A stretch of 64,000 nucleotides of DNA from Styela clava (lineage: Eukaryota), in NCBI RefSeq assembly GCF_964204865.1, contig NC_135257.1:11346001-11410000 (forward strand), given 5' to 3'. This document shows, one piece after another, positions 8,128-36,600 of this stretch. Each line of letters starts with the position of its first letter. Positions within the stretch are counted from its first letter, which is position 1. The translations under genes were made by a program, and so were the position numbers. The notes below the pieces were generated by a model. It had not been told where the DNA came from. It searched no databases and saw only the letters and a list, made by a program, of their open reading frames with translations.

Positions 8128-8571
8128 GTGCAAAAATACTCCCGCTCTTCCGCGGCGGTTTGACGGGTTCTTTGTTCCATTCTTCAGAAAGTTCTGACAC
8201 GGGGATATAGAATACTGAATCCGGAGGGCAGGGTTGTCCAAAACGAATCGAATATTCGAATGTATTCGAATATCAAAGTATTCGAATACCTTTTCGGCTG
8301 ATTTTCGAATAATTCCGAATAGTAGCCACTTTTTGCTGTAAACGTGGTGTTTCGTTTTACGGGAATCTTCAAATGACTTTTTACGCTGTCTCACGTATTG
8401 CAATGACGATGAAATAGAATCGGCAATTTGATTGTTTATACTCTGTGCGACCGTACGTCTCATAGTGTTGCGACACATTTGCACGTTTACGTGGGTGGAC
8501 ATTGTCGACATTCGTCTACGAGACTTTTAATTTACAAATTCATTTTCATTACGTCGAAAAATTGACAATTA

Positions 8572-9398
8572 CCGTATTCCCGGCCTAATTTTTTTTTTTT
8601 TTGGGGGAGGCGTCTAATTGAGAAAGTGTTTATTTTATTTCTAAGTGGCCTGCTTAATATTCGCATGAGTCTTCTCAAGCATGATTTGTGTAACCTTATA
8701 TTTGGGTCTTAGGGTAAGCCAATCATGATATTTATTCGCAGGCCGGTTATCGTTACTTTAAAGAGAAACACGGCCACCGAGATAAAGTGATTTGTGACCC
8801 TTTCGTTTTGCCGATTCAGCAGAACACGACAGGGACAGGAAAACACAGCTGTGAAATAACCCGTGGACGTACAGTGTAGTACTTATCACATTTGTAACCT
8901 TATATTTGGGTCTTAGGGTCTGCCAATCATGATATTTAATCGCAGGCCGGTTATCGTTACTTTAAAGAGAAACACGGCCACCGAGATAAAGTGATTTGAG
9001 ACCCTTTCGTTTTGCCGATTCAGCAGAACACGACAGGGACAGGAAAACACAGCTGTGAAATAACCCGTGGACGTACAGTGTAGTACTTATCACATTTCAA
9101 AATTATTTCAACATTCGGGTTGATAGGTTGTCCAAAATGATTGCCGCTTTTCAACCCAAATTTACCGCTCAATTGTTAAATATAGTTAATTCTTTGAGTA
9201 TGATTCTACCAAACTAACATGATCTGGTTCTGAACATATAAAATTATTAGCGCATATTAGCATAGCTGAACAACAGGGACACAATTTTTCTACCCGTCCT
9301 ATTGTTATTGGAGGCCTATATAGAAAAATCCCTTTTTTGAGTGCTAAAAATAGACATCGTCCTATATGCCATGTGGACTTATTAGCCGAGAAATATGG
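8572..9398. mobile_element. TA-flanked MITE (Tc2/pogo-like CCGTA termini) nested in the hAT element
   Basis: TA|CCGTATTCCCGGCCTAAT ... ATTAGCCGAGAAATATGG|TA imperfect TIRs. Confidence 0.6.
8689..9096. repeat. Near-perfect 204-bp tandem duplication
   Basis: Unit TGTAACCTTATATTTGGGTCTTAGGG...TACTTATCACATT at 8689 and 8893 with only a few substitutions. Confidence 0.95.
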
Positions 9399-9429
9399 TA
9401 TTTATGGCCGTAATTGTTACGATATCCAA

Positions 9430-10590
9430 TAAATTGTCACAAGTTGGATTGGAACAACAATTCGATTTATTAGAAAATAATTTCTGGCAAATAATTTTGA
9501 TAACGATAGTTAAAAGTATCGTACCAGGATGATTTTTGTGGCGCAAAATAATCCAATCCATGACTGGTTACCAGCATTTAAAAATGTCATGCTGTATTAA
9601 TTTAATTCTGTTCAACGTAACTCATGGTTGTATCGACTATCTGTGGACATAAAATGTGTGGTAAACTGACCGATATTATTAAATATTGATTCCTATTTTC
9701 ATATTGATGAAGTAATGAAGGTATTAATACCAAATACCACGGGTATTTGTGGACATGAAATATGTGGTAAACTGCCCAATTATAATTAATTTCGGATTCG
9801 TATTTACAAAATAATAAAAATAAAACTATTATAATTCTAAAACGCAACGGCGATCTGTGGCCTTAAAATGTGTGGTAAACTGCCCGATTTACCAACATTT
9901 GAGTTATGATAATAGAATTAAATTAACACGATAAGGCATTTTAATTAGTGGTATCGGTCATGGATTCGAATATTTTGCGCAGCACAAAATCATCCTAGTA
10001 AAAAGTCCATACTTTTAAATACAAACCAATGGCAACCATTATCCAAATTAGTTCTCAAAATGCGGGATAAAGTATAAATTATTTTTCCGACTTGTGACGA
10101 TAATAGTACGAAAAGTACGAAGTACGAAAATAAGAATCAAAAACTAATTATATTCGGCACAATATCACGGCAATCTGTGGGCATAAATTGTGTGGCAAAC
10201 TCGCGATAAATATTTATTTGTGATTCCTATTTCCGTATTTACAAAATACAACGGCGATCTGTGGACTTAGAATGTGCGGTAAACTACCCGATTATAAATA
10301 GTTTTTGATTCCTATTTTCATATTTATAAATTAATAAAAGTATTATTACTCAAACATACAACGGCGACCTGCGGACTTGAAATGTGTGGTAAAGTTCCCG
10401 AATATAATTAATTTTTGATTCGTATTTTTGTACTCACGAAAAAATTGTCACAAGTCGGAAAAATAACTCTTACTTTATCCCGCTTTTTGACAAATAATTT
10501 GGATAATGGTTGGTATTTAAAAGTATGGGCGTTTTACTATGATGATTTTGTGTTGAGCGCAAATATTCAAATCCATCACCGATACCACTA
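9430..10590. repeat. Composite array: ~150-bp unit in alternating orientation separated by triplets of a ~100-110-bp tandem unit
   Basis: Unit A at ~9430-9580 (+), ~9940-10100 (-), ~10440-10590 (+). Unit B (..GATCTGTGGAC.T.AAATGTGTGGTAAACT..) at ~9638, 9745, 9845, 10167, 10250, 10360. Confidence 0.8.
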
Positions 10591-10989
10591 AATATATATT
10601 ACAATAATCTGCAAATATGAAATTCCTGGTAATATAGCTAGGTTGTAACTTGTAGATAGCAGTTATTCCATTGCTTATTGTATGGAAATTCCTACATAAA
10701 TTTAGATAAGCTTCAATTAGTGGTTTTTATTTTCGAAGTATTCGAAATTTCATATTCGAAAAAAATAATTTCGAATGTATTCAAAATAGTGAACTATTCG
10801 GTATTGGCCATCCCTGCCGGAGGGTTGAATCCCTGTCCACTTACTGGTGATTTTTCGTTTTGAAATGCGTGAAACATTCTCTATTTTAAATTAAATGACG
10901 TTTCGCGAGCTAGAGTTCTCCCCGAAAATGATGTGTTCCAGACGTTAGTTAGACGATATAGAAAACATTAGATTAATAATTTTCGTGAC

Positions 10990-22275: not shown

Positions 22276-22490
22276 ATACATTCAATTTCACAATAAATTG
22301 AATGGCGAAAATCAGAACATGTCCAGTAAAACAAGGTGTATTGCAACCTTAATTTTTACTATTCATTGATTGGCAATCATGCATCCTAAATAAAATGGTG
22401 CATATTTAATAGTTCTAACCTTATCTCTAATTAACAAACCATACTTTTGATATAGTATTGGCATTTGTATAATACAGTAACATTATTGCA

Positions 22491-23777
22491 ATGGACTTGA
22501 AAGATTGTTTCTTACAATTTCCTGATGTGAAGCCTGTGGATCATGCTAAAAATTGTCCAAGATACACAAATATCGTTAATCGGCATAAAGATGATGGAGT
22601 ATCATTGGATGAATTAGATTCTTTACAAATGGAGTTGGAACAACTACTTGCCGCTGCATCACAAAGGATGAGACAATTGAACTCGGAGATTGGCATATTG
22701 TCAGACCTACAAGACAATAAAAAAGACAAAAAAGTTTCCAGAGGCAAAGATACTGAGCATAAGCGCTCTCGAATAGTTGAAGATCGTCCAGTCAAAAAGA
22801 TGAAAACATCAGACTCATCATCTCATATTCATGCTATAAAACCCTTATTTCATTTGAATAGTTCAACGTCATCACCAAGTGGTGCTGGCAGGTCGAAGGC
22901 AAAAGGCTCTCGCATTGAAACAGAAACAAATGACGAATTACCCGTTTTACAAAGGAATGCTGAAGTTCCTAATAAGTTTTGGCAAATGGTTGATACATAC
23001 TGTGGGCCCATACCACAAGAAACAATTTCGCTTTTAGAGAAAATGGAAAAACCAATTTCTGAGGAATATTTTGAAATTCCCCCTCTTGGCAAACATTTCA
23101 GTCAAGTTTGGGCAGAAGAAGATTTGGCAATGGAGGAAAAAGAAGGGGGTAGAATTGGAAAAAATAATAGTAATACTGAGTCATCTATTCAGAGGATAAT
23201 GAAAAAAACAGCAGAAAATTTGAATGATGCAGAACCATGCCCATATGGGTCACTTACCCAGCGATTGGTTTCTGCTTTCGTGCAAGAAAATATAATAGCG
23301 CCACTGGATTCTGGTCTTGCCAATGATGGAAAAGCATTTGAAGCTCTTACGAACAATGACCAAAATGTTGCTTCCAAAAATGGCAAGGCATCTAGTTCTC
23401 CCCATACCACAAAACTGGAGGCCCGAATAAAGGCTGAACTATATGAACAAGGTCTTATTGATCATTTTTCTGAAAATGATAAAGATGAAGATGAAGTTCT
23501 TTTGGAACTGAAACGATGTCAACAAGAATTGAGGGCAATAGGTGATAGAAATAGGACAATTGTTTCACAACTTTTGAAACTTTCCAGAGATGATATGAAA
23601 AAACAAGAATTGAGAAAAAATATTGAAATAACAAACATTGAAGTTACTGAACATTACAGAAAGGTTTTTGCTGCTCGACAGAAAAAAAGAAATTTGATGA
23701 AAAAGGAAAAAGAAAGTGCATTGAAAGCTATAAAAGAACGAGAAAGTTTGGTCAAACAGTTAGAACAATTGAACTGA
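22491..23777 (+). CDS. TADA3: Transcriptional adapter 3 (SAGA/ATAC HAT module subunit), single exon, 428 aa
   Basis: Motifs CPRYT..., SLDELDSLQMELEQLL, PNKFWQMVDTYC, IPPLGKHFSQVWAEEDL, CPYGSLTQRLVSAFVQENII match the recalled human TADA3. Confidence 0.95.
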   Translation: MDLKDCFLQFPDVKPVDHAKNCPRYTNIVNRHKDDGVSLDELDSLQMELEQLLAAASQRMRQLNSEIGILSDLQDNKKDKKVSRGKDTEHKRSRIVEDRPVKKMKTSDSSSHIHAIKPLFHLNSSTSSPSGAGRSKAKGSRIETETNDELPVLQRNAEVPNKFWQMVDTYCGPIPQETISLLEKMEKPISEEYFEIPPLGKHFSQVWAEEDLAMEEKEGGRIGKNNSNTESSIQRIMKKTAENLNDAEPCPYGSLTQRLVSAFVQENIIAPLDSGLANDGKAFEALTNNDQNVASKNGKASSSPHTTKLEARIKAELYEQGLIDHFSENDKDEDEVLLELKRCQQELRAIGDRNRTIVSQLLKLSRDDMKKQELRKNIEITNIEVTEHYRKVFAARQKKRNLMKKEKESALKAIKERESLVKQLEQLN

Positions 23778-24372
23778 TTTATATTCAACGCACAGTTACA
23801 GATTATAAGTTTGGTTTGAATCTAATTGGACTCGTGGTAAACATACCCATGCACACAACCTCTATCGTGTATGGGGATGTTGAAATATCAATACCGGTAA
23901 TTAGAATTCAATTAATCTAAATGGTCTATTTTTACAATAACGTGTTTCATATTTTAAACAATCATGACATTTCCCTGACAATGGTAAATTTTTTGAGTAA
24001 TCTTATATGCATTTTGTTTATCAAAACTAAACATACCATGGTCATTTTGAATAGATGCTGAGTAATTTGGTTTGTCAATTGTTCCTGCAATATCTTGTAT
24101 CACAACTTACGAGTTGTAGTTTAAAACCCTAATTTGAAAAGACATGAGAACTCATTAATATGATATTATGTGATGTGAGTATGTATTATTTTCTATTACT
24201 GTTGTTTCTCTATCTTTGCAAATTACACATTGTTGGAATTTTGAGAAAAATTGACTTTTTTTGGTAAAACAGAAACCTTTTTTTCTTTCCTAATGTTTAT
24301 TCGTTTATCTTTTTTATACAGCAGAAATTTTGGTAAAAGTTAAATTACATTCGTAACTCTAATTTTTCGACT

Positions 24373-27300
24373 ATGGACGAAATATTATTTCCGAGAGGAA
24401 AAGCAAAGCGTGAACCATCGACTTTTAAGAAGAAGGGTGCCAAACGCCAAGCCGCAGTTGATTCTCTGTTTTCAGAAGGAAGCAAGTCATCTACGGGTGG
24501 GCATTTTACAAAAGAAAAGAAAAAACCAAAAGAAAAAGATGAAATAATCAAAAGTCATGGTATTAAAGATGTGGATGGATTGTTACAAGGGATGGATGAA
24601 ATAAATGTGGATTTTTTGCATTGCAAAAGAGTACAAGAGGGAACACTGCTGTTGGGGTGTATTCGTGAGATACAGGAACTGCAACTTGTTGTTGGTATAC
24701 CTCATTGTAATACTGGTCAAGTACAAGCTAATCATATATCTGATATATATACTTCGCAAATACGAAAGCATCTTGAGCAAGATTCTGAGCAGCTTACGCC
24801 TTTATCTGATATGTTTCAAGTTGGGGATATTGTTGTTTGTTCTGTAGTTAATCCAACAGGGATTACGACACTACATCTCACTCTTCAACCATCTGTTGTA
24901 AATAAATATCTCTCCACAATGAGTTTTTTTGTTGGACAGATGATTTCTGGTGCTGTAAAATCAGAAGAAGACCATGGTTATACTATTGATATTGGAAAAA
25001 ATGATGTTAATGCATTTATACCGACTGGGGAAATTGGTGCTCGAAAATTGAAACTTGGTGCTGTCATTCGTTTTGTCATTACAAGTATTCGAGGAGAAGG
25101 AACTATTGTACTTTTGTCTTTAGATGAGAAAAAAATTGAAAAATCACTTTTAAAACTGGATAATGGAGTTTCGCTGGATACGCTGCAACCTGGAATGGTG
25201 GGAATGTTCCATCCAACAAAAAAACTAAAGCCTGGCGTAGTTGGAAAATTCTTGGATTTTAATGCTTCAGTTTGTGCTCTTGATTGTGATATGTCTAAAA
25301 TACGCTTAGAAAAGGATGACTTTGATAAAAATTTTGGGAAGAAGAAAAAACGCAAAACGACTAAAGGAAAGGATCAACCTGAAAAAGAGAGAATTGACAA
25401 ACGGATCAAAGGCTGTATTTTGTATGTGAACCCTATTACAAAACATGTTTCATTGAGTACCAATCACTTTTTGTTCACCAATGATACAAGACTGAAGATG
25501 ATAGAAACTAACATGAATCATTTTCCTCGGGGACACAAATGCTCAGCTAAGGTTACAAAGTGCATCAATGGATTGGGAGCTATGTTAATGATTGGAGAGT
25601 CAAATGGAACTCGCGCTTTTTGCCCTATGAAGTATGTAAGTGATGCGAAGATAACTAATTTTACAGAAGTAATCAGAAAAGGTGATTCTTTCCCAGCACT
25701 GGTTCTGCATAGTTCAAGTCTGGATGGTGCTGTTATTTTGAGTTTGAAGAAAAGTATGGTTGAACGTGAATTTTTAACCTATGACAGCATTACTCCTGGG
25801 ACAGTCATGGATTGTACTATTTCAGGTATTTTCGACAGTGGACTTGTTGTAACATTAGGTACAGATGCCTTTACTCCAGTAAAAGGCTTTGTGCCCAAAA
25901 TCCACATGGCTGACATTATTTTAAACCATCCTGAGAAAAAGTTTTCAAAAGGTGATGTAATATCATGCAAAGTTTTGTACGTCGATAAAGCTGCTGGACG
26001 AATACATCTGACTCACAAGAGAACTCTTTTGAAATCACGACTTCCTACTATCGTTAGTTATGATCAGTTAGAGCCTGGTTGCATTGCTCATGGTTACATT
26101 GCATCTATCAAACCATATGGGGTTTTTGTGAATTTTTATAACAATGTACATGGCATTGTGCGCAACTCTGAATTGTCTGCAGAATTGGTGGAAGATCCTG
26201 AAAAAATATTTTTTGTTGGACAGGTTATGAAGTGCCGGCTTTTGAGTTGTGATTTGGAAGCAGAACGTGCATCATTTTCATTTATTCTGAGACCTAAGCC
26301 AAAAGACAAAAAAGAAGATCATACATCCGTATCTAATATTAGCTTGGTGAATCTAGAGGTGGTGAATAAAATTGAAGGTGGCTTCGAAGTTGTTGTATGT
26401 GATGATGATAAGCAAAGGGACTTGTGGACCAAAGGATTTCTGCCCTTGATGCATTTGTCTGATTTTCCATCACTGGCACATTCATGGTATGAAATTATCA
26501 CTCCACATACTGTTTTAGAGGATTGTTTACCCATTGGTAAAAAGAAACAGCCCATCTTTACCAAGAAAAATTCTTTTGTAGGTAAATTCAAGAGCATGAA
26601 AGAGAACGCTGAAGATAATGCAAATCAAACGCTTACATTTTCTGACCTGAAAGAAGATTTGATAACACCTGGTTTTGTACATCATATCGCCGAGTATGGA
26701 GTGTTTGTTCAAGTTTACGGTGGTCTTTTAGGCTTGTGTCCAAAATCAAAGATGGCTGATCGCTACCTCCTTACATCTGATGGATATTACCAAGAAGGGC
26801 AGTCGGTGGTTGCTAAAATAGTTGAAATGGATATGGAAAAAAGAAGGTTTATTGTCAGTTTGAAAGTTTCTGATTGTCCACAAGAACAACTCACAGCGGA
26901 TTACTTGAAAGAGCTAACAGATATAATGCGAAGCTGTTCTTCTTCATGGCCAAAATCAGTGGCAATTGGTAAGCAAATGAAGGTACATTTGACTTCCAAA
27001 CCAAGCGAAAATGGTGTGGCAATGTGTAGCAGTTCACTTTTCCCTGAAAATTATAAGTGTTGTGTGATAGATATAGATACCAATGAAGAGTCAACAGATG
27101 TGAATGCAGCTCTACTTGATGTAAACCCTGTATCAAAATGTATAACATTGTCAGCTAATAGCAAATTACTTGGAAGTACAGTGAAGCATAATAATGGTAC
27201 TGTCTTGAAGGCAACAGTGGCATACATGAATGAAGATGTGTCGACTGTTTTCGATCTGGAGAACGCCTATGCTGGTTTACTTTTAAATAGAACCCATCCC

Positions 27301-29916
27301 AATCATCCCATATTCGAGAACTTGTGGCCTTGGAAGCAACATGACAGCATTACTGTTACAGTATGTAAACCAATAAATCAAGCGAATGTCGTTTCTGCTA
27401 CTCAAACTTCCCACAACAAAAAGCATTTTACTCATGGTGTAAAACGCCAAAGAGAAGAATCGGAATGCTCTGATGTGTCCTTGCAGGGTGATATAAATTT
27501 TGGAAACCTCCAAGTGGGTCAAAAAGTTGAAGGTACCATTCGCTCTGTACGAATGAATACTATTCTTGTCAGGTTTACGGAGTCTGAATTGGAAGGTGGT
27601 TACCGTGGACAACCAGTCACTGGAAGATTGCACATATCAGAGATAGAACATAAACATGAACATGGTGCTTTTTCGAAGATTACAAAATACCGCCCTTGGG
27701 ACAAATTAAAATGTAATGTAATAGGATTTCGTGATGTACGTACACACCGTTATCTTGCAATTACTAATCGAAATGCTAGGAGATGTGTTCCTGAGTTAAG
27801 TTTACTCGATTCTCCAGTTGGCATTGAATTTGAGGATTTGAAGATAGGTCAATGTATTACAGCTTTTTCTCATCAATATGTTCCTTCGAAAGATGAAATT
27901 CATGTTGAAATTACTCCTGCTATAAAAGGATTTCTACCTACCTTACTGCTTTCTGATAATCCAATGAAAATATTGAAATCTTCTCACAAATTCAAGAAGC
28001 CTGTTGTATTGCATTGTATCGTGCACAAACTGATGCACAATACTGTCACGCTCGCTGGAAAAGGTGCTATGATTGATAGAAAAACTCAGAAAGATGTTAC
28101 TGAACTGAATGAAGATTGCATCACAAATGGAAAGATTTGCAAAATTTTTCCAAGTAACATGATTATCAAATTACCTAAAGGTGGTGTTGGAAAAGTACAC
28201 ATCACACAATCTGCAGATGTGTTTGCTACTCGTCCATTTGAAGACTTCGAAGTTAGCCAGGTTGTTCGCTGTAGTATTGTGTCATGTGGAGATAGGAAAT
28301 CACTTGCCCTTTCTTTGAGGAAATCTAGACTCGCACAGGAGTATGACCAAAGTAATATAAAGGATAAAGAGATCTCGGAAGCCAAAGAAATACATTCTGG
28401 CCAAATACTTCGTGGTTTTGTAAAAATCGTCTCAAATTCTGGAGTTTTCGTTAGTTTGTCCCGGACCATCACTGGAAGAGTAGACATGACAAAGATTTCA
28501 AAATATTTCATAAAAGATACAAGTCTGATAGAAGAAGTGTTGAAAGAAGGGACTCTTGTTACATGTAAAGTAATTGAAGTGTCTAAAATGGAGGGAAAAG
28601 TTAGTTTGTCATTGTTAGAAGGGGATACTGGTTTGCCAGATCTTATTCCTGAAGCTCTTGGTCTTCCACAAAGACATGGTAAGCCAAAAGAGCAAAAAAG
28701 AAAAGAAGTTGGTCTGTTGGTTGACAAAATTGAGGGAAGGAAAAGGCGCAAAAAACAAAAAGAAGAAACTGGTGGCACTGAAGAGAAAAGAAAGAAGACT
28801 GATGACATTGATTCTGGACTTGAAGAGGAATCACCAACATTGGATACCCCACCTCGTTACCTAAGTAATGTTTCACAGCATGAAGATAGTGTTGAAGACC
28901 CAGGTTTTAGTTGGGAGTCAATAAATTCTACATCGGCAAAGGAAACAAGTGATTCTATGGATTCCTCAGATGATGACGATAATGCGGAATTGAGTGATGA
29001 AAAAGTTGTCAACAAGAAGAGCAAAAGAGAAATTGAAGCAGAAAAAGATCGTGAAGAAGCAGATCTGCGAACAAAAGAGGAGGAAATGTTAGAGGACAAT
29101 GCTCCACAGACAGCCTTGGATTGGGACAAGCTTGTACTTGCCAGTCCCCAGAATTCAATGCTATGGGTCAGCTACATGGCATTTCATCTTCGTGCCACTG
29201 AAGTTGAAAAGGCAAGAGTAGTTGCTGAAAGAGCATTAAAAGTGATTGATTTTCACGAAGAAAAAGAAAAGTGGAATGTATGGGCAGCTCTTCTTAACCT
29301 CGAAACTAGATTTGGTAGCAGTGAATCACTGACAAAAGTGATAGATACTGCGACCCAGCATAATGACCCTCTGAAAGTTAATTTTCATATGGTTTCTACC
29401 TTTGAAAGGTTGAACAAGTTTGATAATGCAGAAGAGTTGTGCTCAAAAATAGTAAGGAAATTCAAGCGCAATAAATCTGCCTGGATACTTTATATCAGCC
29501 ATCTTATGCAAAGAGGAAAGAGAGAAAAGGCAAATGAAGTTTTCAAAAGATGTTTACAGAGTCTTGAAAAGAATGTTCACCTTGAAATTATTTCAAAGTA
29601 TGCCCAATTGGAATATAAATGCGGAGACACTGAACAAGGCAGAGTTCTATTCGAAAATGCTCTCAGTAATTATCCGAAACGGGCTGATATTTGGTCTGTT
29701 TATATCGATATGTTGATAAAAGTGGACAAGTTGGAAGATGCAAGAGAAGTGTTTGAGCGTGTTACAACTCTAAATTTATCAACTAAAAATATGAGAAGTT
29801 TTTTCAAACGTTACATTGATTTTGAAACCAAATATGGGAGTGATGAATCTGTAGCTGAAGTAAAACAGAAGGCTCTTGACTATATTGAGTCGAAAACAAA
29901 TGATATGGTGGAATAA
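24373..29916 (+). CDS. PDCD11: RRP5 homologue (rRNA biogenesis; S1 repeats plus C-terminal HAT/TPR repeats), single exon, 1847 aa
   Basis: N-terminal FPRG; repeated S1 motifs (EEDHGYTIDIG, YGVFVNFY, YGVFVQVY, SGVFVSL); C-terminal PQNSMLWVSYMAFHL, EEKEKWNVWAALLNLE, YPKRADIWSVYIDM. Confidence 0.95.
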   Translation: MDEILFPRGKAKREPSTFKKKGAKRQAAVDSLFSEGSKSSTGGHFTKEKKKPKEKDEIIKSHGIKDVDGLLQGMDEINVDFLHCKRVQEGTLLLGCIREIQELQLVVGIPHCNTGQVQANHISDIYTSQIRKHLEQDSEQLTPLSDMFQVGDIVVCSVVNPTGITTLHLTLQPSVVNKYLSTMSFFVGQMISGAVKSEEDHGYTIDIGKNDVNAFIPTGEIGARKLKLGAVIRFVITSIRGEGTIVLLSLDEKKIEKSLLKLDNGVSLDTLQPGMVGMFHPTKKLKPGVVGKFLDFNASVCALDCDMSKIRLEKDDFDKNFGKKKKRKTTKGKDQPEKERIDKRIKGCILYVNPITKHVSLSTNHFLFTNDTRLKMIETNMNHFPRGHKCSAKVTKCINGLGAMLMIGESNGTRAFCPMKYVSDAKITNFTEVIRKGDSFPALVLHSSSLDGAVILSLKKSMVEREFLTYDSITPGTVMDCTISGIFDSGLVVTLGTDAFTPVKGFVPKIHMADIILNHPEKKFSKGDVISCKVLYVDKAAGRIHLTHKRTLLKSRLPTIVSYDQLEPGCIAHGYIASIKPYGVFVNFYNNVHGIVRNSELSAELVEDPEKIFFVGQVMKCRLLSCDLEAERASFSFILRPKPKDKKEDHTSVSNISLVNLEVVNKIEGGFEVVVCDDDKQRDLWTKGFLPLMHLSDFPSLAHSWYEIITPHTVLEDCLPIGKKKQPIFTKKNSFVGKFKSMKENAEDNANQTLTFSDLKEDLITPGFVHHIAEYGVFVQVYGGLLGLCPKSKMADRYLLTSDGYYQEGQSVVAKIVEMDMEKRRFIVSLKVSDCPQEQLTADYLKELTDIMRSCSSSWPKSVAIGKQMKVHLTSKPSENGVAMCSSSLFPENYKCCVIDIDTNEESTDVNAALLDVNPVSKCITLSANSKLLGSTVKHNNGTVLKATVAYMNEDVSTVFDLENAYAGLLLNRTHPNHPIFENLWPWKQHDSITVTVCKPINQANVVSATQTSHNKKHFTHGVKRQREESECSDVSLQGDINFGNLQVGQKVEGTIRSVRMNTILVRFTESELEGGYRGQPVTGRLHISEIEHKHEHGAFSKITKYRPWDKLKCNVIGFRDVRTHRYLAITNRNARRCVPELSLLDSPVGIEFEDLKIGQCITAFSHQYVPSKDEIHVEITPAIKGFLPTLLLSDNPMKILKSSHKFKKPVVLHCIVHKLMHNTVTLAGKGAMIDRKTQKDVTELNEDCITNGKICKIFPSNMIIKLPKGGVGKVHITQSADVFATRPFEDFEVSQVVRCSIVSCGDRKSLALSLRKSRLAQEYDQSNIKDKEISEAKEIHSGQILRGFVKIVSNSGVFVSLSRTITGRVDMTKISKYFIKDTSLIEEVLKEGTLVTCKVIEVSKMEGKVSLSLLEGDTGLPDLIPEALGLPQRHGKPKEQKRKEVGLLVDKIEGRKRRKKQKEETGGTEEKRKKTDDIDSGLEEESPTLDTPPRYLSNVSQHEDSVEDPGFSWESINSTSAKETSDSMDSSDDDDNAELSDEKVVNKKSKREIEAEKDREEADLRTKEEEMLEDNAPQTALDWDKLVLASPQNSMLWVSYMAFHLRATEVEKARVVAERALKVIDFHEEKEKWNVWAALLNLETRFGSSESLTKVIDTATQHNDPLKVNFHMVSTFERLNKFDNAEELCSKIVRKFKRNKSAWILYISHLMQRGKREKANEVFKRCLQSLEKNVHLEIISKYAQLEYKCGDTEQGRVLFENALSNYPKRADIWSVYIDMLIKVDKLEDAREVFERVTTLNLSTKNMRSFFKRYIDFETKYGSDESVAEVKQKALDYIESKTNDMVE

Positions 29917-30381
29917 GAAGGAAGGACCAATAAAACGTACAATGCATGATGAATTTTAAATAGAAAATGGATTAGTAATTCTGTATCATTCAATCTGCAT
30001 AGTCGAACAGTATCACCTGTTTCTTATGGTCATTCATTTCATTGTTCTTTTGAAGTTTATCAATCAGTGAAATGGATGGATATTATTTTGCATTGAATAA
30101 CCTATTCTGTTTCTGCTCTCACTACTATTGCTGCATTGCCAGTGATTGTTATATTAATGCGACTGTCTGTCAGTTTATGCAAAATCACTCATTTGATCTG
30201 TAATGTGTTAAGTATGTGTTAAAATTTTTTTGCCTAATTATGGGTTTAAAATCGATCATTTTTCATGTATCTGTTCTTTATCATGCTATGTATCTTTATT
30301 TCAATCTCAAACTGCCAATCACGTTTTTTTCTGTTTTCCAGATCTTATAATAGATTTTATTCATGGTTTTTGTGCTTAGAA

Positions 30382-30615
30382 ATGGATAATCGTGGTGGAG
30401 GAAGCGTTATACAAAGAGAGATTCAACAAGATTGGGCAAATCGGGAATATATTGAAGTAATAACAAGCAGCATAAGAAAAATTGCAGACTTTCTCAACGG
30501 ATTCGATCTGTCTTGTCGTTCACGTCTTGCAACACTGAATGAAAAATTAACAAAACTTGAAAAGCGCATAGAATACATTGAAGCTAGAGTTACGAGGGGG
30601 GAAACTCTCAGCTGA
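30382..30615 (+). CDS. BRK1: BRICK1 / HSPC300 (WAVE regulatory complex subunit), single exon, 77 aa
   Basis: [67 protein letters not shown] is near-identical to the recalled human BRK1; ATG at 30382 follows TGCTTAG|AA. Confidence 0.95.
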
Positions 30616-30650
30616 ATTCTTGAATTGCACAAAACTTAACTTTATAAACT

Positions 30651-33600
30651 ATGTCTGATCCACTTTCTTTTTTTGCTGCTAATTCTGATGATTCCGATTC
30701 TGAAGATGATAATTCTGATAAGGAGGATGCTAGCATACCTGTTACTAAGCCTGCTCAACAAACAGTCAAACCAGGCAACAAAAAATTGCCACCACCTATG
30801 ACAGTACTTGCATCAGCTAAACGGCCAGAGTTTACAATAGACCCACTTCGCCAGGATGTGGACTGGGACAAACTGACAAAGAAAGCACCTGAACTGGTAA
30901 ATCATTTTCATATGTTTGTAAAAATATACCTTACCAGTCTACGGAATGTTCAGAGGCATTGTCTCTTACTTAGGACTTGATACAATGTTTAAATATAAGT
31001 TTCTGACCTATTACTGCTGCCGTTATTTTGTGTAGTGAGGATCTAAGTTACATTATTACTAGTGTAAGTAAGCCTAATTTATAGATATTATGAACTAATG
31101 AGTTGACGACCATCTTCCATTATTTCTCAAATTGTTCAGTACATGATGTTTTGTTTATAGTCAAATATCACATCCTCACTCGTAACACTACATGCACAAT
31201 ATATCTTCAACACAGTATAAATTTGTTGCTGCGACTAGGGTTGCCACTTCCGGATACATTTTTTTTCGAATCGAATCTCGAATCGAAAATTTTCGAATCG
31301 AATCTTTCCGAATCTGGTTCCGGAAATGTTTTTTTTTTTTTTTTTTCATCGCTAAAAAATTACCCAAACTGCGTCACCTCTAATGCTGACATGGCACCCA
31401 AACAATACACTATTACAGCAAAAACAAAACGCCAGTGGAAAATGAAATATAATCTGTTATCTGAAAACAAATTCCAAAATAACATGCAAAACATCACCCC
31501 CCCCCTGTCAGAACCTGTGTGTCAAGTTCGCGAAAAAGGCAAAATTTGAAGAAGATATTGTTTCACTCCAACAATTTCTTATTGCAGTAGAGAAAATTGA
31601 GTTCATTAACATGGGCACTCGTTAGTCGTGATCTCAACTGTGAAACAGTCAGTCCAGCAGAAGAAAAAGCCCTTTCTGAAGCAGCCGAGGTTGCGGGTAC
31701 ACTCAGATACTTCACTGCCATTCTCTTGAGCAAAGGGGCACGGGCTCCATTGTTATCCCACCAGGTCAATGGTGCAGGTGGTGACTCTTTATCATCAACC
31801 TTTCGTTTTAAGTACCAAGCTATTTCCTCTGACACAATATTTGAACTTTCCGAGTCTGAAGAACTGCCAGAGTTCTCTAGGCCTCTCTCAAAAAGTCCAT
31901 GAATTTCACTAGATGAATTCACGGTTTCCATTTGCTCTTGACTATGATCCATTTGTGGCAGGGGTCCATGACGTGATTCATCCTGAGCCGTAGAAGTATC
32001 TGCTTCAGTTTCAACAGCTATCCGCACCTATGAAAAATGTTTCATCAGCATCAGAAATCGAAGTGAGATTAATTTGAAATTAGAACATTCAAAAATTAAA
32101 TTACCGAGACTCGCATCTGTCTGCTGAAAAATTTGCCCTTGTGAAAGGGATTCAACCAGGTGGACTTGTGGTAAATGCTTACTCCTTCGCTTTGTACTGA
32201 AGTTGACATGACATCTGAGAATCTAGTGTGTAACGAACTGAGAATGGTCGAACAGAAGGTCTTTGATGCCGATAGCTGAAGATCATCGACAAGGAGTTCT
32301 TCACACTGACCCACTAAACCTTTTGCAATTGGTAGCAAAGATGACATCGTCACATAATTACTTCCTTCAAGGTGATCAGAGGCTGTCTAAAAATAAGATA
32401 TTTTATTGCAAATTTTTGAACACTGAATTGTAAACCCAAGGACAAATAATCCTAGTCAATATAATTCAGTTCTCATAAACTATCATTATGATGCAGCAAA
32501 CACAGAGTTAGTAACCTTTTGAAATAAAATTCTGAGCTTGATTAGTTACCTTGAATGGTTTCAATATGATAGAAATTTCTCTCAGCAAGCTCCAGTGGTT
32601 GTCCTTTAGTTCAAGACTGACTGCTGTCGCTCGTGGGACAATTGTTGGATCAGCCAGTACCGAACGAATTATCCACTGGTTTTTCACAAGATTTGCTATC
32701 ATAGCAAATGTGGAGTTCCACCTGGTTGAAACGTCTATCGGCATCTCAATGTTTTTTATTTCAGTGTCTGCCGACTGAGCATGGCGTCGCAACGCTGTCA
32801 TGCATTTTGCTGACCTTCTAAAGTGTTGCACTAAGTGCCGCGCAGCACCTGAAATTTAAATTTTTATACATAAATACATCCAGTGAACATATTCTGACAA
32901 AAAGTGTTTCATTTAAATAGCATATGATTTCAAACTATCCATTTGTAGGCATTCCATAGATTTATCAGGCTTTCCCCTTATTTAGCATCACATACAGCCT
33001 CACTTACCTAGTGCCCTTGCTATTTCTGTATTTTTGATGGCATCTTTGATACACAGCTGGAGGGTGTGAGCAGCGCAACGAATGTGATGCCAGCCATGTT
33101 CAGTTTGTAAAATTTTACATGCAGAAACAACATTCGCCCCATTGTCTGTTACTATAGCAAATATGGAGGAAGGGGGGATAGAAAAATCATTCAGTACATA
33201 TAGGATGTAACTTTTCAAGTTTATACCAGTTTGGTCCCCAACTATTTGTGTAGTGGACAATACATAGTTCTGTAGTTCTCCTGCCATGACAAAATGTGCT
33301 GTAACAGTTATATAAGCTTCCATCCGGATGCTTGTCCATGCATCTGTTGTGATAGATATCACATTTTGTTCTTTTAAAATAGACATGAGTTTGCATTTAT
33401 ACTGCGAATATGTAGTTTCAATCTGTTTTCCAAAAAAAGTTCTTCCAGGCATCTCGTATCCCGGCTCAAGATTTGATATTAAATTTCTAAAATGCTCCCC
33501 CTCTACGATATTGATCGGCCTCATGTCCCCTATTATAACATTGACTATTAATTTGTCTATATGATTCTGTCTTTGTCTGCTAATGGACTTTGATTTAAAA

Positions 33601-36600
33601 AAGGTTTCAAGTTTTTTCTGTTTTGTTCCACTTCCACTGCCTTCTGTCACTTGGCTCGCTGTTAAACTGAAAATAAAATGTATAAAATATAAACAGCAGC
33701 TACATAATCTTGTACACATTTAGTAAAATTTTCTGCTGGCTTGACCTGCTTTATTGATTAGACAGTATGAAATATGGTGGACAATTGCCTCTGACATAAA
33801 TTTGCCTGACCTGGCTGGGCATCACAACTGTCAACATCGCAACTAATACAATTCTAACTTTTGTATCAGCTTGAAGTTACACGAGTATAAAATTATTTCT
33901 AATTACTGATTTCTCTATTTATCTTTTCAGTCCTGCCAGTATGTTAGTTTAGCAAACCATTGCTTATTTCATTTCCTAAATGAAACTGTTTTAAGTACCC
34001 GAGTTTAAGAACTATAATTCTGTAGTTACGTAAGCCCATATGGCGTTCTGGCTGTAGAAGAATTAATTAAAAAAAAGGTTTGGCTTACTTTGATGTATGC
34101 ACTGAATCAGTGTTGATGAATGCATGTCTTCTTCTGAGGTGGTTCAAAAGATTGCCGGTAGACTCGCAGTATGACAACTTCTCTTTACAGAAGTTGCAAA
34201 TCACATATGAATATCCCTCCTCTTTTGACGGGCGAGAAAAATGTTCCCAGACTAAGGAATTGGGGCGCTGTCCCTGCCGCCTAGGTGTTATTTTTTTAAA
34301 GCTACTACTGATATTAGACATTCTGAATAATAAAAATGCATTGCAAATAGTCATATAATTAAGTTATACTAGTAAGCTACCGATGCCTGGCCGCACATTT
34401 TGCAGTCCAATGAGTTTAACAGCAGCGCATGGCACCCTGTCAAGTACCACGTCCCGGTTCTCCTACAATTTGCAATGCAAACTTGTAACAATCAGTCCCC
34501 ACTCAGTCTTGAACCACTGAATTGTTGAACCCAACACCGCAGAAGAACACTGAAAAAACTTGTTGTAATATTCCGCTTGACAACACGACAGAACAATACG
34601 GCAATAACACTCGCAAATGGCACACAGAGTTTGTAGACTACCCCACGCTGAGTTTTACTGTTACCGGTAACAAATATTGATAGATTCCAGGATTAAATAA
34701 CTAAATACAGAACAGTTAGTAAATATAACACGCAATAAGTCCCATCCTATCCTAACCTATTGATTCCCAACTAAATAATAACAATAGCAGAAATCTAATA
34801 ACTCACAAAACGCACACTCAACTAAATCCTAAAGGACCGGCAAAGCAGATGACTGCCGATTGCGCCATCACAGCTCGTCTCGCTCACGCACAACAGAGAG
34901 CAATACAAGATACTAACTAAAGAGCAAGGGTCGACGTCGGTCGATTGCAGCAGCCAATAGCGTGCAAGACAAACATATTGCGACATCGCTCAATACTCAC
35001 TCTCAAATACAATAAAGAAATAAACCAATGTTCAGACCTGTTGAAAATTGTTGTCGTAAAATTACGCATCAAAGAAGCCCGGGCGATATGTGAATTCGAC
35101 TTTGCGAACGAGCAAAGAGTTTTGCAGACCACTAGCAGATGTCTCGCTGGTGTGTGTTCCCCACTGCAAAACGAACGCAAAACGAGAGCACTTCGCCGAA
35201 AAAAAGAAGGCAAATCACTCTCTAAAGTATATCTTTCGTCGTTGAAATGAATGCTAATTTCATCAAACAAAGAACTGTATCCCATTATAAAGCGCAAATT
35301 CATTCGAGAGAGATAGCCGGACGAGCGCTTATTTGTTTGCTTTCGAGTGAAATCATATCTGGAAGACAACCGCCGTTAATAAAATCGAGAGTCGGCGTTA
35401 TTTTTTGTAAAGCCACGTTATCGTTTTTCGAATCGCCCGAGTGCGATTCGAATCGATTCGAAAAGGCAACGATTCGAATCGATTCGATTCGGAAATCCAA
35501 ATGTGGCATCCCTAGCTGCGACCAAGTGAATTTTATTTTCATACGATAAATTAACATATAAAAGCATTCATATCATTATGGAATGACAAGTTGGATTTGG
35601 TCAACCATATTGCCATTTTTGATTTTTCAACAAATCTCTGTATCAGGACGTAAGTTTATTTGTTACAGTTTGCAAATGCAATGTATAATATATTTTTCGT
35701 TCTTAGCCTGAAAAAGAATACAAGCCTTGGGAAAACAGACTTCCTACAGTTGAAAAATCTGTGAAGACCAAAGATGGAACAAAGCAATCAACTTTAGCAC
35801 AACAAGTACCTGGAGCTTCTGCTCCTAATGTTGCAGATGGTATGTAACTTTATTTATCTTACCATGAAAGCTTTTACCTCTTTAAAATATTAGAAGACAT
35901 TTGAGTGAATTGGAAATGATGTAATGCTCTTCACTTTTTTATACTTTGCGCCATTGCCAATTGAAAGCATTTGCAAGAGTTTCAAAGGTAACTGTTATAA
36001 CTCTTGACTCCTTAAGCATCTCGTTTTTCACTTTCAATGAACATACCTGAAGCAAGCCCGTATCATAAATGAAATAAATAGTAATATTTCATTATGTTTG
36101 ATTGAAATTACATTTTATAGGTCCAGCTCAAGGTCGCCCACATGAATACATTGATCAGGCAGTTCAGTGGTCTAAAATGTATCAAACAATGGATAAATCA
36201 GGAAATATCAAAAGGGTGAAACCACAGGATATAGGTGGAGAAGATTTAGAAGGATTTCTCTTTACTGATCTGGAGGCAGAAAAGGTGAATACTGCAGAGC
36301 TAATGAATTTCAACTTTGAATTCATACATTTTGCTCTGATCGAGGCTCTGTACAGGCAGCCACTTTTTTTAAAAAGATCCAAAACTTCCTGAACCTGCGA
36401 TGCCATATTAGTTAAGTCTAATGTAACCACTAGGCCAATAGCCCACAAAATTACTCTCTATTTGTAAAATAATGTTTGAAAAAATCAAAATTTAATGTGA
36501 CTACTATTCATTAGGTCGCATATAACGGTAACAAACGGCAGAAAATGGATCAACAACAGCCACCCTCTTTCCGATCCAAGGAAGCAAAAAAGAGAACTAT

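Follow-up and report, generated by a model that had tools for sequence, protein, structure and literature searches.

A young hAT transposon family in Styela clava with an exon-skipping transposase transcript and a probable captured LTR piece

A stretch of 64,000 nt of the Styela clava genome (assembly GCF_964204865.1, contig NC_135257.1, positions 11,346,001 to 11,410,000; referred to as the window) was found to carry a hAT element of 4,279 bp (31236–35514), which on the evidence of its sequence belongs to a young, mobile family that has moved recently; the movement seen is past movement only. Exon 1 of the transposase gene was joined straight to exon 3 in four of four transcript runs from three studies, by which the exon carrying both catalytic Asp residues was left out. 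The preferred reading, to which a probability of roughly 60 % was assigned, is a young Ac-type hAT whose transposase output is limited by skipping of exon 2. The element is a new member of the known hAT family and was correctly described as a hAT transposon in a preliminary description of the window. The exon 1–3 skip form and the apparent capture of a piece of a BEL/Pao long terminal repeat (LTR) are new here; precedents exist in other elements.

Ends, copies and age of the element

The element is flanked by two identical 8-mers, the target-site duplication (TSD) GCTGCGAC, which agree in 8 of 8 bases. Its terminal inverted repeats (TIRs) show 11 of 12 matching bases, and 16 of 20 over a longer stretch. 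The hexamer CGAATC, counted on both strands, occurs 31 times in the window and 14 times inside the two element ends (6 at 31267–31314, 8 at 35429–35491); the exact sequence TTCGAATCGA was found 6 times in the window, 5 of them in the element ends. By analogy, these subterminal repeats are likely the binding sites of the transposase BED finger. The perfect TSD, both TIRs and the subterminal arrays that had been claimed in the preliminary description were all recovered. The terminal features are:

31228..31235, + strand: left 8-bp TSD GCTGCGAC (sequence match)
31236..31247, unstranded: TIR at the element 3′ end, 11/12 match to the other end (end comparison)
31265..31314, unstranded: 3′-end subterminal repeats, 6 CGAATC units (hexamer count)
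35429..35491, unstranded: 5′-end subterminal repeats, 8 CGAATC units in both orientations (hexamer count)
35503..35514, unstranded: TIR at the element 5′ end (end comparison)
35515..35522, + strand: right 8-bp TSD GCTGCGAC (sequence match)

Further copies were sought in one Styela clava assembly, and 40 of 348 candidates were scored. Six copies with both ends were identified, namely the window copy and those at C18:14.14 Mb, C6:19.0 Mb, C6:21.5 Mb, C8:2.14 Mb and C19:12.79 Mb; an exact end-pattern search of the genome gave no further family copies. All six carry a perfect 8-bp duplication of their own, each different from the others, and the TSD is therefore not a chance match. The copies are 98.8–99.4 % identical (pairwise difference 0.56–1.22 %), each lying 0.28–0.65 % away from the majority sequence, which bears out the earlier suggestion of a recent element with near-identical copies at different TSDs. 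The open frame is kept in four of the six; one copy is frameshifted and one has a 2-kb deletion. Among the best 150 representatives after P0024, P0046 and P0154, no relative outside the family was closer than 51 % identity, and there is thus no sign of recent horizontal transfer. Activity and autonomy of the element, and its use as a transgenesis tool, may reasonably be supposed.

The pattern of the 3′ end matched 121 places in the genome (control: 0), which by their sequence appear to form a family of older non-autonomous elements that share the ends of the element. The thirty of these loci that were examined are 80–92 % alike over the first few hundred bases, and a partner end within 1.5 kb was found for one of them. 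Two non-autonomous elements were traced to both ends (1.3 and 3.4 kb), the longer one giving no transposase match. Eight of nine extra exact 3′-end matches were set aside; they share one common flank and represent a single insertion inside another amplified repeat.

Two family copies were themselves found to carry insertions. Intron 1 of one copy holds an 8.5-kb Mutator- or Foldback-like element (C6:21508379–21516898) with a 9-bp duplication, long inverted ends (196/200 match) and a tandem-repeat interior. The deleted copy is interrupted in exon 5 (C19:12794984–12795625) by 0.64 kb of inserted DNA that has short inverted ends together with an 8-bp duplication; this is likely another hAT miniature element (MITE).

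Transposase gene, its transcripts and the LTR piece

The transposase gene was modelled as five minus-strand exons separated by GT–AG introns of 422, 159, 163 and 77 nt:

34089..34321, − strand: exon 1, start codon and BED zinc finger (spliced open reading frame (ORF) model, Pfam)
33008..33666, − strand: exon 2, 659 nt, not a multiple of 3, with D186, D252 and CxxH 275–278 (ORF model, Hermes alignment)
32550..32848, − strand: exon 3, RW motif; its acceptor is joined straight to exon 1 in the skip form (ORF model, transcript contigs)
32105..32386, − strand: exon 4 (ORF model, transcript contigs)
31563..32027, − strand: exon 5, SERAFS (catalytic Glu, E609), hAT dimerisation domain and stop (ORF model, Pfam, contigs)

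Together the exons give 1,938 nt, or 645 aa plus stop, with zero internal stops; this splice form is a model, for which the support from transcript contigs differs by intron. The BED finger, both Asp contexts, CxxH, RW and the catalytic Glu, all named in the preliminary description, were located in this frame (TTDAW at 184, VTDNG at 250, CAAH at 275, TRWNS at 339 and SERAFS at 608). Pfam placed zf-BED in exon 1 (E 5.8e-11) and Dimer_Tnp_hAT in exon 5 (E 4.5e-18), both above cut-off. Exon 2 matched the transposase of Hermes weakly (E about 1e-4 over 115 aa) with both Asp residues and CxxH in register, and RW and E609 were aligned with homologues by protein comparison. Over its full length the spliced protein can be aligned with hAT transposases, the best match being P0003 (40 % over 637 aa). 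The in-frame ATG at 34354 was not accepted as the start codon, since its frame is closed in an older relative. The region upstream of the start codon (34322–34430, − strand) holds four ATGs and an acceptor-like tract, and was read through unspliced in the contigs examined.

Transcripts were taken from four of nine family-bearing runs that had been guessed to be RNA, among 20 listed; none of the nine is recorded as RNA. Runs labelled organisms B and C were left aside, and the results bear on no other species. Assembled contigs show presence, neither level nor absence, and drop rare forms; read depth was not used for ranking exons. The join of exon 1 to exon 3 (32846–34087) used the exact donor and acceptor in all four runs, and in runs X11 and X12 it was contained in a single contig with at least 230 letters on either side. 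Introns 3 and 4 were spliced as modelled in four of four runs. The exon 1–2 join, which the 645-aa protein requires, was seen in none of the four, in contigs from which rare forms are dropped, and unspliced intron 1 was present in contigs of X5, X8 and X11. The claim that five exons splice into 645 aa thus holds for the open frame and its GT–AG introns and, in the transcript contigs, for introns 3 and 4 and in one run for intron 2; it was not borne out for the exon 1–2 join, exon 1 being joined to exon 3 instead. To this extent the second objection that the preliminary description had raised against itself, predicted splices unused in cDNA, applies in part.

Because exon 2 is 659 nt long, its loss shifts the frame. 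The skip product is predicted to have 87 aa, essentially the BED finger only, with a stop computed to lie 550 nt upstream of the last junction, and the skip form is a predicted target of decay; retention of intron 1 is predicted to give a 78-aa peptide, likewise BED-only. The full-length transposase mRNA is therefore likely to be of minor amount or confined to certain cells. No candidate emerged when short BED-only homologues were searched for, a result that carries no evidential weight.

At the sites of the window copy's private alleles the contigs hold the majority alleles, and expression is therefore not attributable to the window copy. The private alleles of the window copy include those at 32282, 34269 and 31430 and its 3′ deletions. 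One run showed five alleles that are absent from all six assembly copies. The skip contigs checked (X8, X11 and X12) differ from one another, and none matches any assembly copy exactly, the damaged ones included; the skip therefore likely belongs to the family at large and does not reflect a single damaged copy.

The 5′ region contains a further feature, present in all six copies:

34437..35030, − strand: captured BEL/Pao LTR piece without termini (similarity to the LTR at locus L059, comparison with older relatives)

This piece of about 590 bp shares the orientation of the transposase gene, and 116 bp separate it from the ATG downstream. Window positions 34437–35030 match dozens of places in the genome, many of them paired 7,190 bp apart, and one such pair forms the two LTRs, 99.9 % identical, of a BEL/Pao element (L059, C18:4574845–4582790) with a 5-bp duplication and one long frame (Pfam Peptidase_A17, DUF1759, DUF5641). 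The piece is 83–85 % identical, in aligned blocks, to the 752-bp LTR of this element, but it has neither of the LTR termini, no target duplication accompanies it, and it stands in place of older sequence; it was therefore likely captured by repair rather than integrated as a solo LTR. A relative on C10 (80 % identical) has a different segment of about 300 bp at this position, which matches a still older C18 relative (72 %). As the segment is common to two older relatives, the LTR piece is the derived state. From its position and sense, it likely serves in the 5′ region or promoter, contigs giving no transcription start. LTR pairs resembling L059 were noted at several further loci, and LTR-like contigs in X11 and X12.

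Accounts of the exon skip

In the preferred reading, exon 2 skipping limits a cut-and-paste element. By analogy with hAT biochemistry, the fully spliced 645-aa protein would bind the subterminal repeats through its BED finger and would cut the element ends with D186, D252 and E609; insertion would follow with an 8-bp stagger, as is the rule in the hAT family. Much of the family RNA would skip the catalytic exon, and little working transposase would be made. Counted in favour of this account is also that older relatives, by a simple count over about 159 codons, differ by 29 synonymous and 17 non-synonymous changes.

Several observations weigh against this account. The RNA status of the runs is an automated guess and their tissues are unstated, and the transcripts may stem from copies outside the assembly, whose introns are invisible. 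We infer that the skip form predominates from contigs that give no levels. Intron 2 was spliced (exon 2–3 join) in one of the four runs, and the exon 2 acceptor is used by public models whose RNA support is unstated: P0046, the model of an older relative, has the same exon 1–2 join, and in P0170 the acceptor is reached from an exon that lies 1.6 kb beyond the element. Finally, no contig in the four runs connects the element to its flanks at the window site.

An unlikely alternative, though the best of those considered, is autoregulation of the P-element type, in which a BED-only peptide or a 360-aa C-terminal frame opened by the skip keeps transposition in check, whether by binding at the ends or by poisoning the multimer, and full splicing is confined to the germline. 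Both non-productive forms retain exactly the DNA-binding finger. As in the P element, an alternative RNA form is present here, with a predicted truncated product that keeps the DNA-binding domain. Passages of PMC4647562 describe how intron retention in the Drosophila P element yields a truncated repressor, and the abstract of PMC4890040 describes the dependence of Tgf2 end binding on the BED finger. Set against this, the early stop predicts decay, the BED-only peptide has no dimerisation domain, and the 360-aa frame begins at a downstream ATG behind several others. The fuller version, a still-mobile chordate hAT with the LTR as promoter, the BED-only repressor in most cells and the full transposase in the germline only, appears equally doubtful.

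Slightly less probable again is that the skip has no regulatory meaning and leaks from damaged copies or through poor splice sites, with full-length mRNA of intact copies below contig detection. Three of the six assembly copies are indeed damaged beside exon 2 (the 8.5-kb insertion or a 170-bp deletion in intron 1, or an altered intron 2 donor), and exon 2 is the longest exon; the skip contigs, however, come from three studies and do not show the alleles of the three damaged copies.

That the element is a fixed host gene of ZBED type that has been domesticated, or belongs to a family that no longer moves, is very improbable: this would suit the ZBED1/ZBED6-like names of public models and the count of 13 synonymous versus 22 non-synonymous changes among the copies (ratio about 0.48, p = 0.04, not corrected for transition bias), but there are six dispersed copies with intact ends, different TSDs and two broken frames, which exclude the single fixed domesticated gene that the preliminary description had set against its own reading and are still compatible with a recent halt of movement.

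Relation to known elements, insertion site and significance

The family resembles Ac-group hAT elements (Tol2 of medaka, Tgf2 of goldfish, Hermes of housefly) in its 8-bp TSDs (six of six copies), short imperfect TIRs and subterminal repeats, and in a transposase within the 600–800 aa typical of the group, with BED finger, DDE triad, CxxH and RW (by alignment to Hermes and homologues) and C-terminal dimerisation domain. Passages of PMC4316626 give 5–27 bp as the size range of hAT TIRs, and T at position 2 and A at position 7 of the TSD as an Ac-group trait. Among the eight paired TSDs (six family copies and two non-autonomous elements), T was found at position 2 in seven and A at position 7 in seven; the window's own TSD lacks the T. 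The target sites thus fit the Ac group. Tol2 is given in passages of PMC8151067 as about 4.7 kb long, with introns and a main isoform of 649 aa. In contrast to these elements, that of Styela carries the captured LTR piece; its similarity to Hermes is the weak match given above, and named fish relatives are about 30–34 % identical over the protein.

Within Styela clava, the ZBED1/ZBED4-like hAT transposases P0001–P0004 are 32–45 % identical to the 645-aa protein. P0024 shows 98.7 % identity over 297 aa, and the C6:19.0 Mb copy is represented by the public model P0170; both models lack the BED exon. The public models P0024, P0170, P0046 and P0001–P0004 are named ZBED-like or uncharacterised.

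The P element, the fungal hAT Restless, whose short form reportedly keeps a zinc finger, and Tol2, with its long and short mRNAs, likewise obtain a full transposase and a truncated form from one gene, whereas the Styela family skips a whole catalytic exon rather than retaining a single intron, and a repressor role would here be conjectural. To go by the titles of Kempken and Kück 1996 and Tsutsumi et al. 2003, Restless and Tol2 are reportedly splicing-controlled. Restless is mentioned in passages of PMC3441728 and PMC4763223. The passages of the Styela clava genome paper (PMC7540406) mention transposon expansion and contain no hAT family. A literature search, with most subscription papers, Repbase, Dfam and the supplements of PMC7540406 aside, found no description of the element or of exon skipping in an ascidian hAT.

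The insertion lies antisense to a DUF4660 (C1orf52-like) gene, in the intron that follows its first coding exon:

30651..30896, + strand: first coding exon of the C1orf52-like, DUF4660 host gene (Pfam, transcript contigs)

The host intron (30897–35706) measures 4,810 nt and is computed to be 523 nt once the element and one TSD are removed, in agreement with the earlier estimate of an enlargement from ~0.5 to 4.8 kb in intron 1. It was spliced in all four runs, which is uninformative on the effect of the insertion because the contigs lack the window copy's private alleles. Contig flanks on element-like ends speak neither for nor against polymorphism; one maps to a sibling non-autonomous element in the genome, and the second gave 0 matches.

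The BRK1 (HSPC300) gene, in the region 30342–30896, ends 35 nt before the C1orf52-like start (PDB match, E 5e-36), and both genes were covered by single contigs in three of four runs. This fits an operon, a contig being no proof of one transcript. One contig bears a 22-nt foreign leader at an acceptor-like site near 30341, which we take to resemble a trans-spliced leader; a search did not confirm it. Long open frames of 1,859 and 434 codons lie upstream of BRK1 (24337–29913 and 22473–23774, + strand). Further end-like sequences with TTCGAA arrays at 1904–2711, which has no clean duplication, and at about 8230–10790 are probably older non-autonomous elements of hAT type.

Animal genomes commonly contain young, intact hAT elements, so the element by itself is ordinary. 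A regulated skip would provide an example, open to test, of a DNA transposon controlled by splicing in an invertebrate chordate, and would matter in practice: anyone cloning the transposase as cDNA from bulk RNA would likely obtain the inactive version. The LTR capture, its direction fixed by two older relatives, lets the idea of a promoter swap before the recent burst be tested. The genome also contains about 120 related non-autonomous ends, which could be open to cross-mobilisation. Should a P-element-like switch prove true, a native transposase for styelid ascidians would be at hand.

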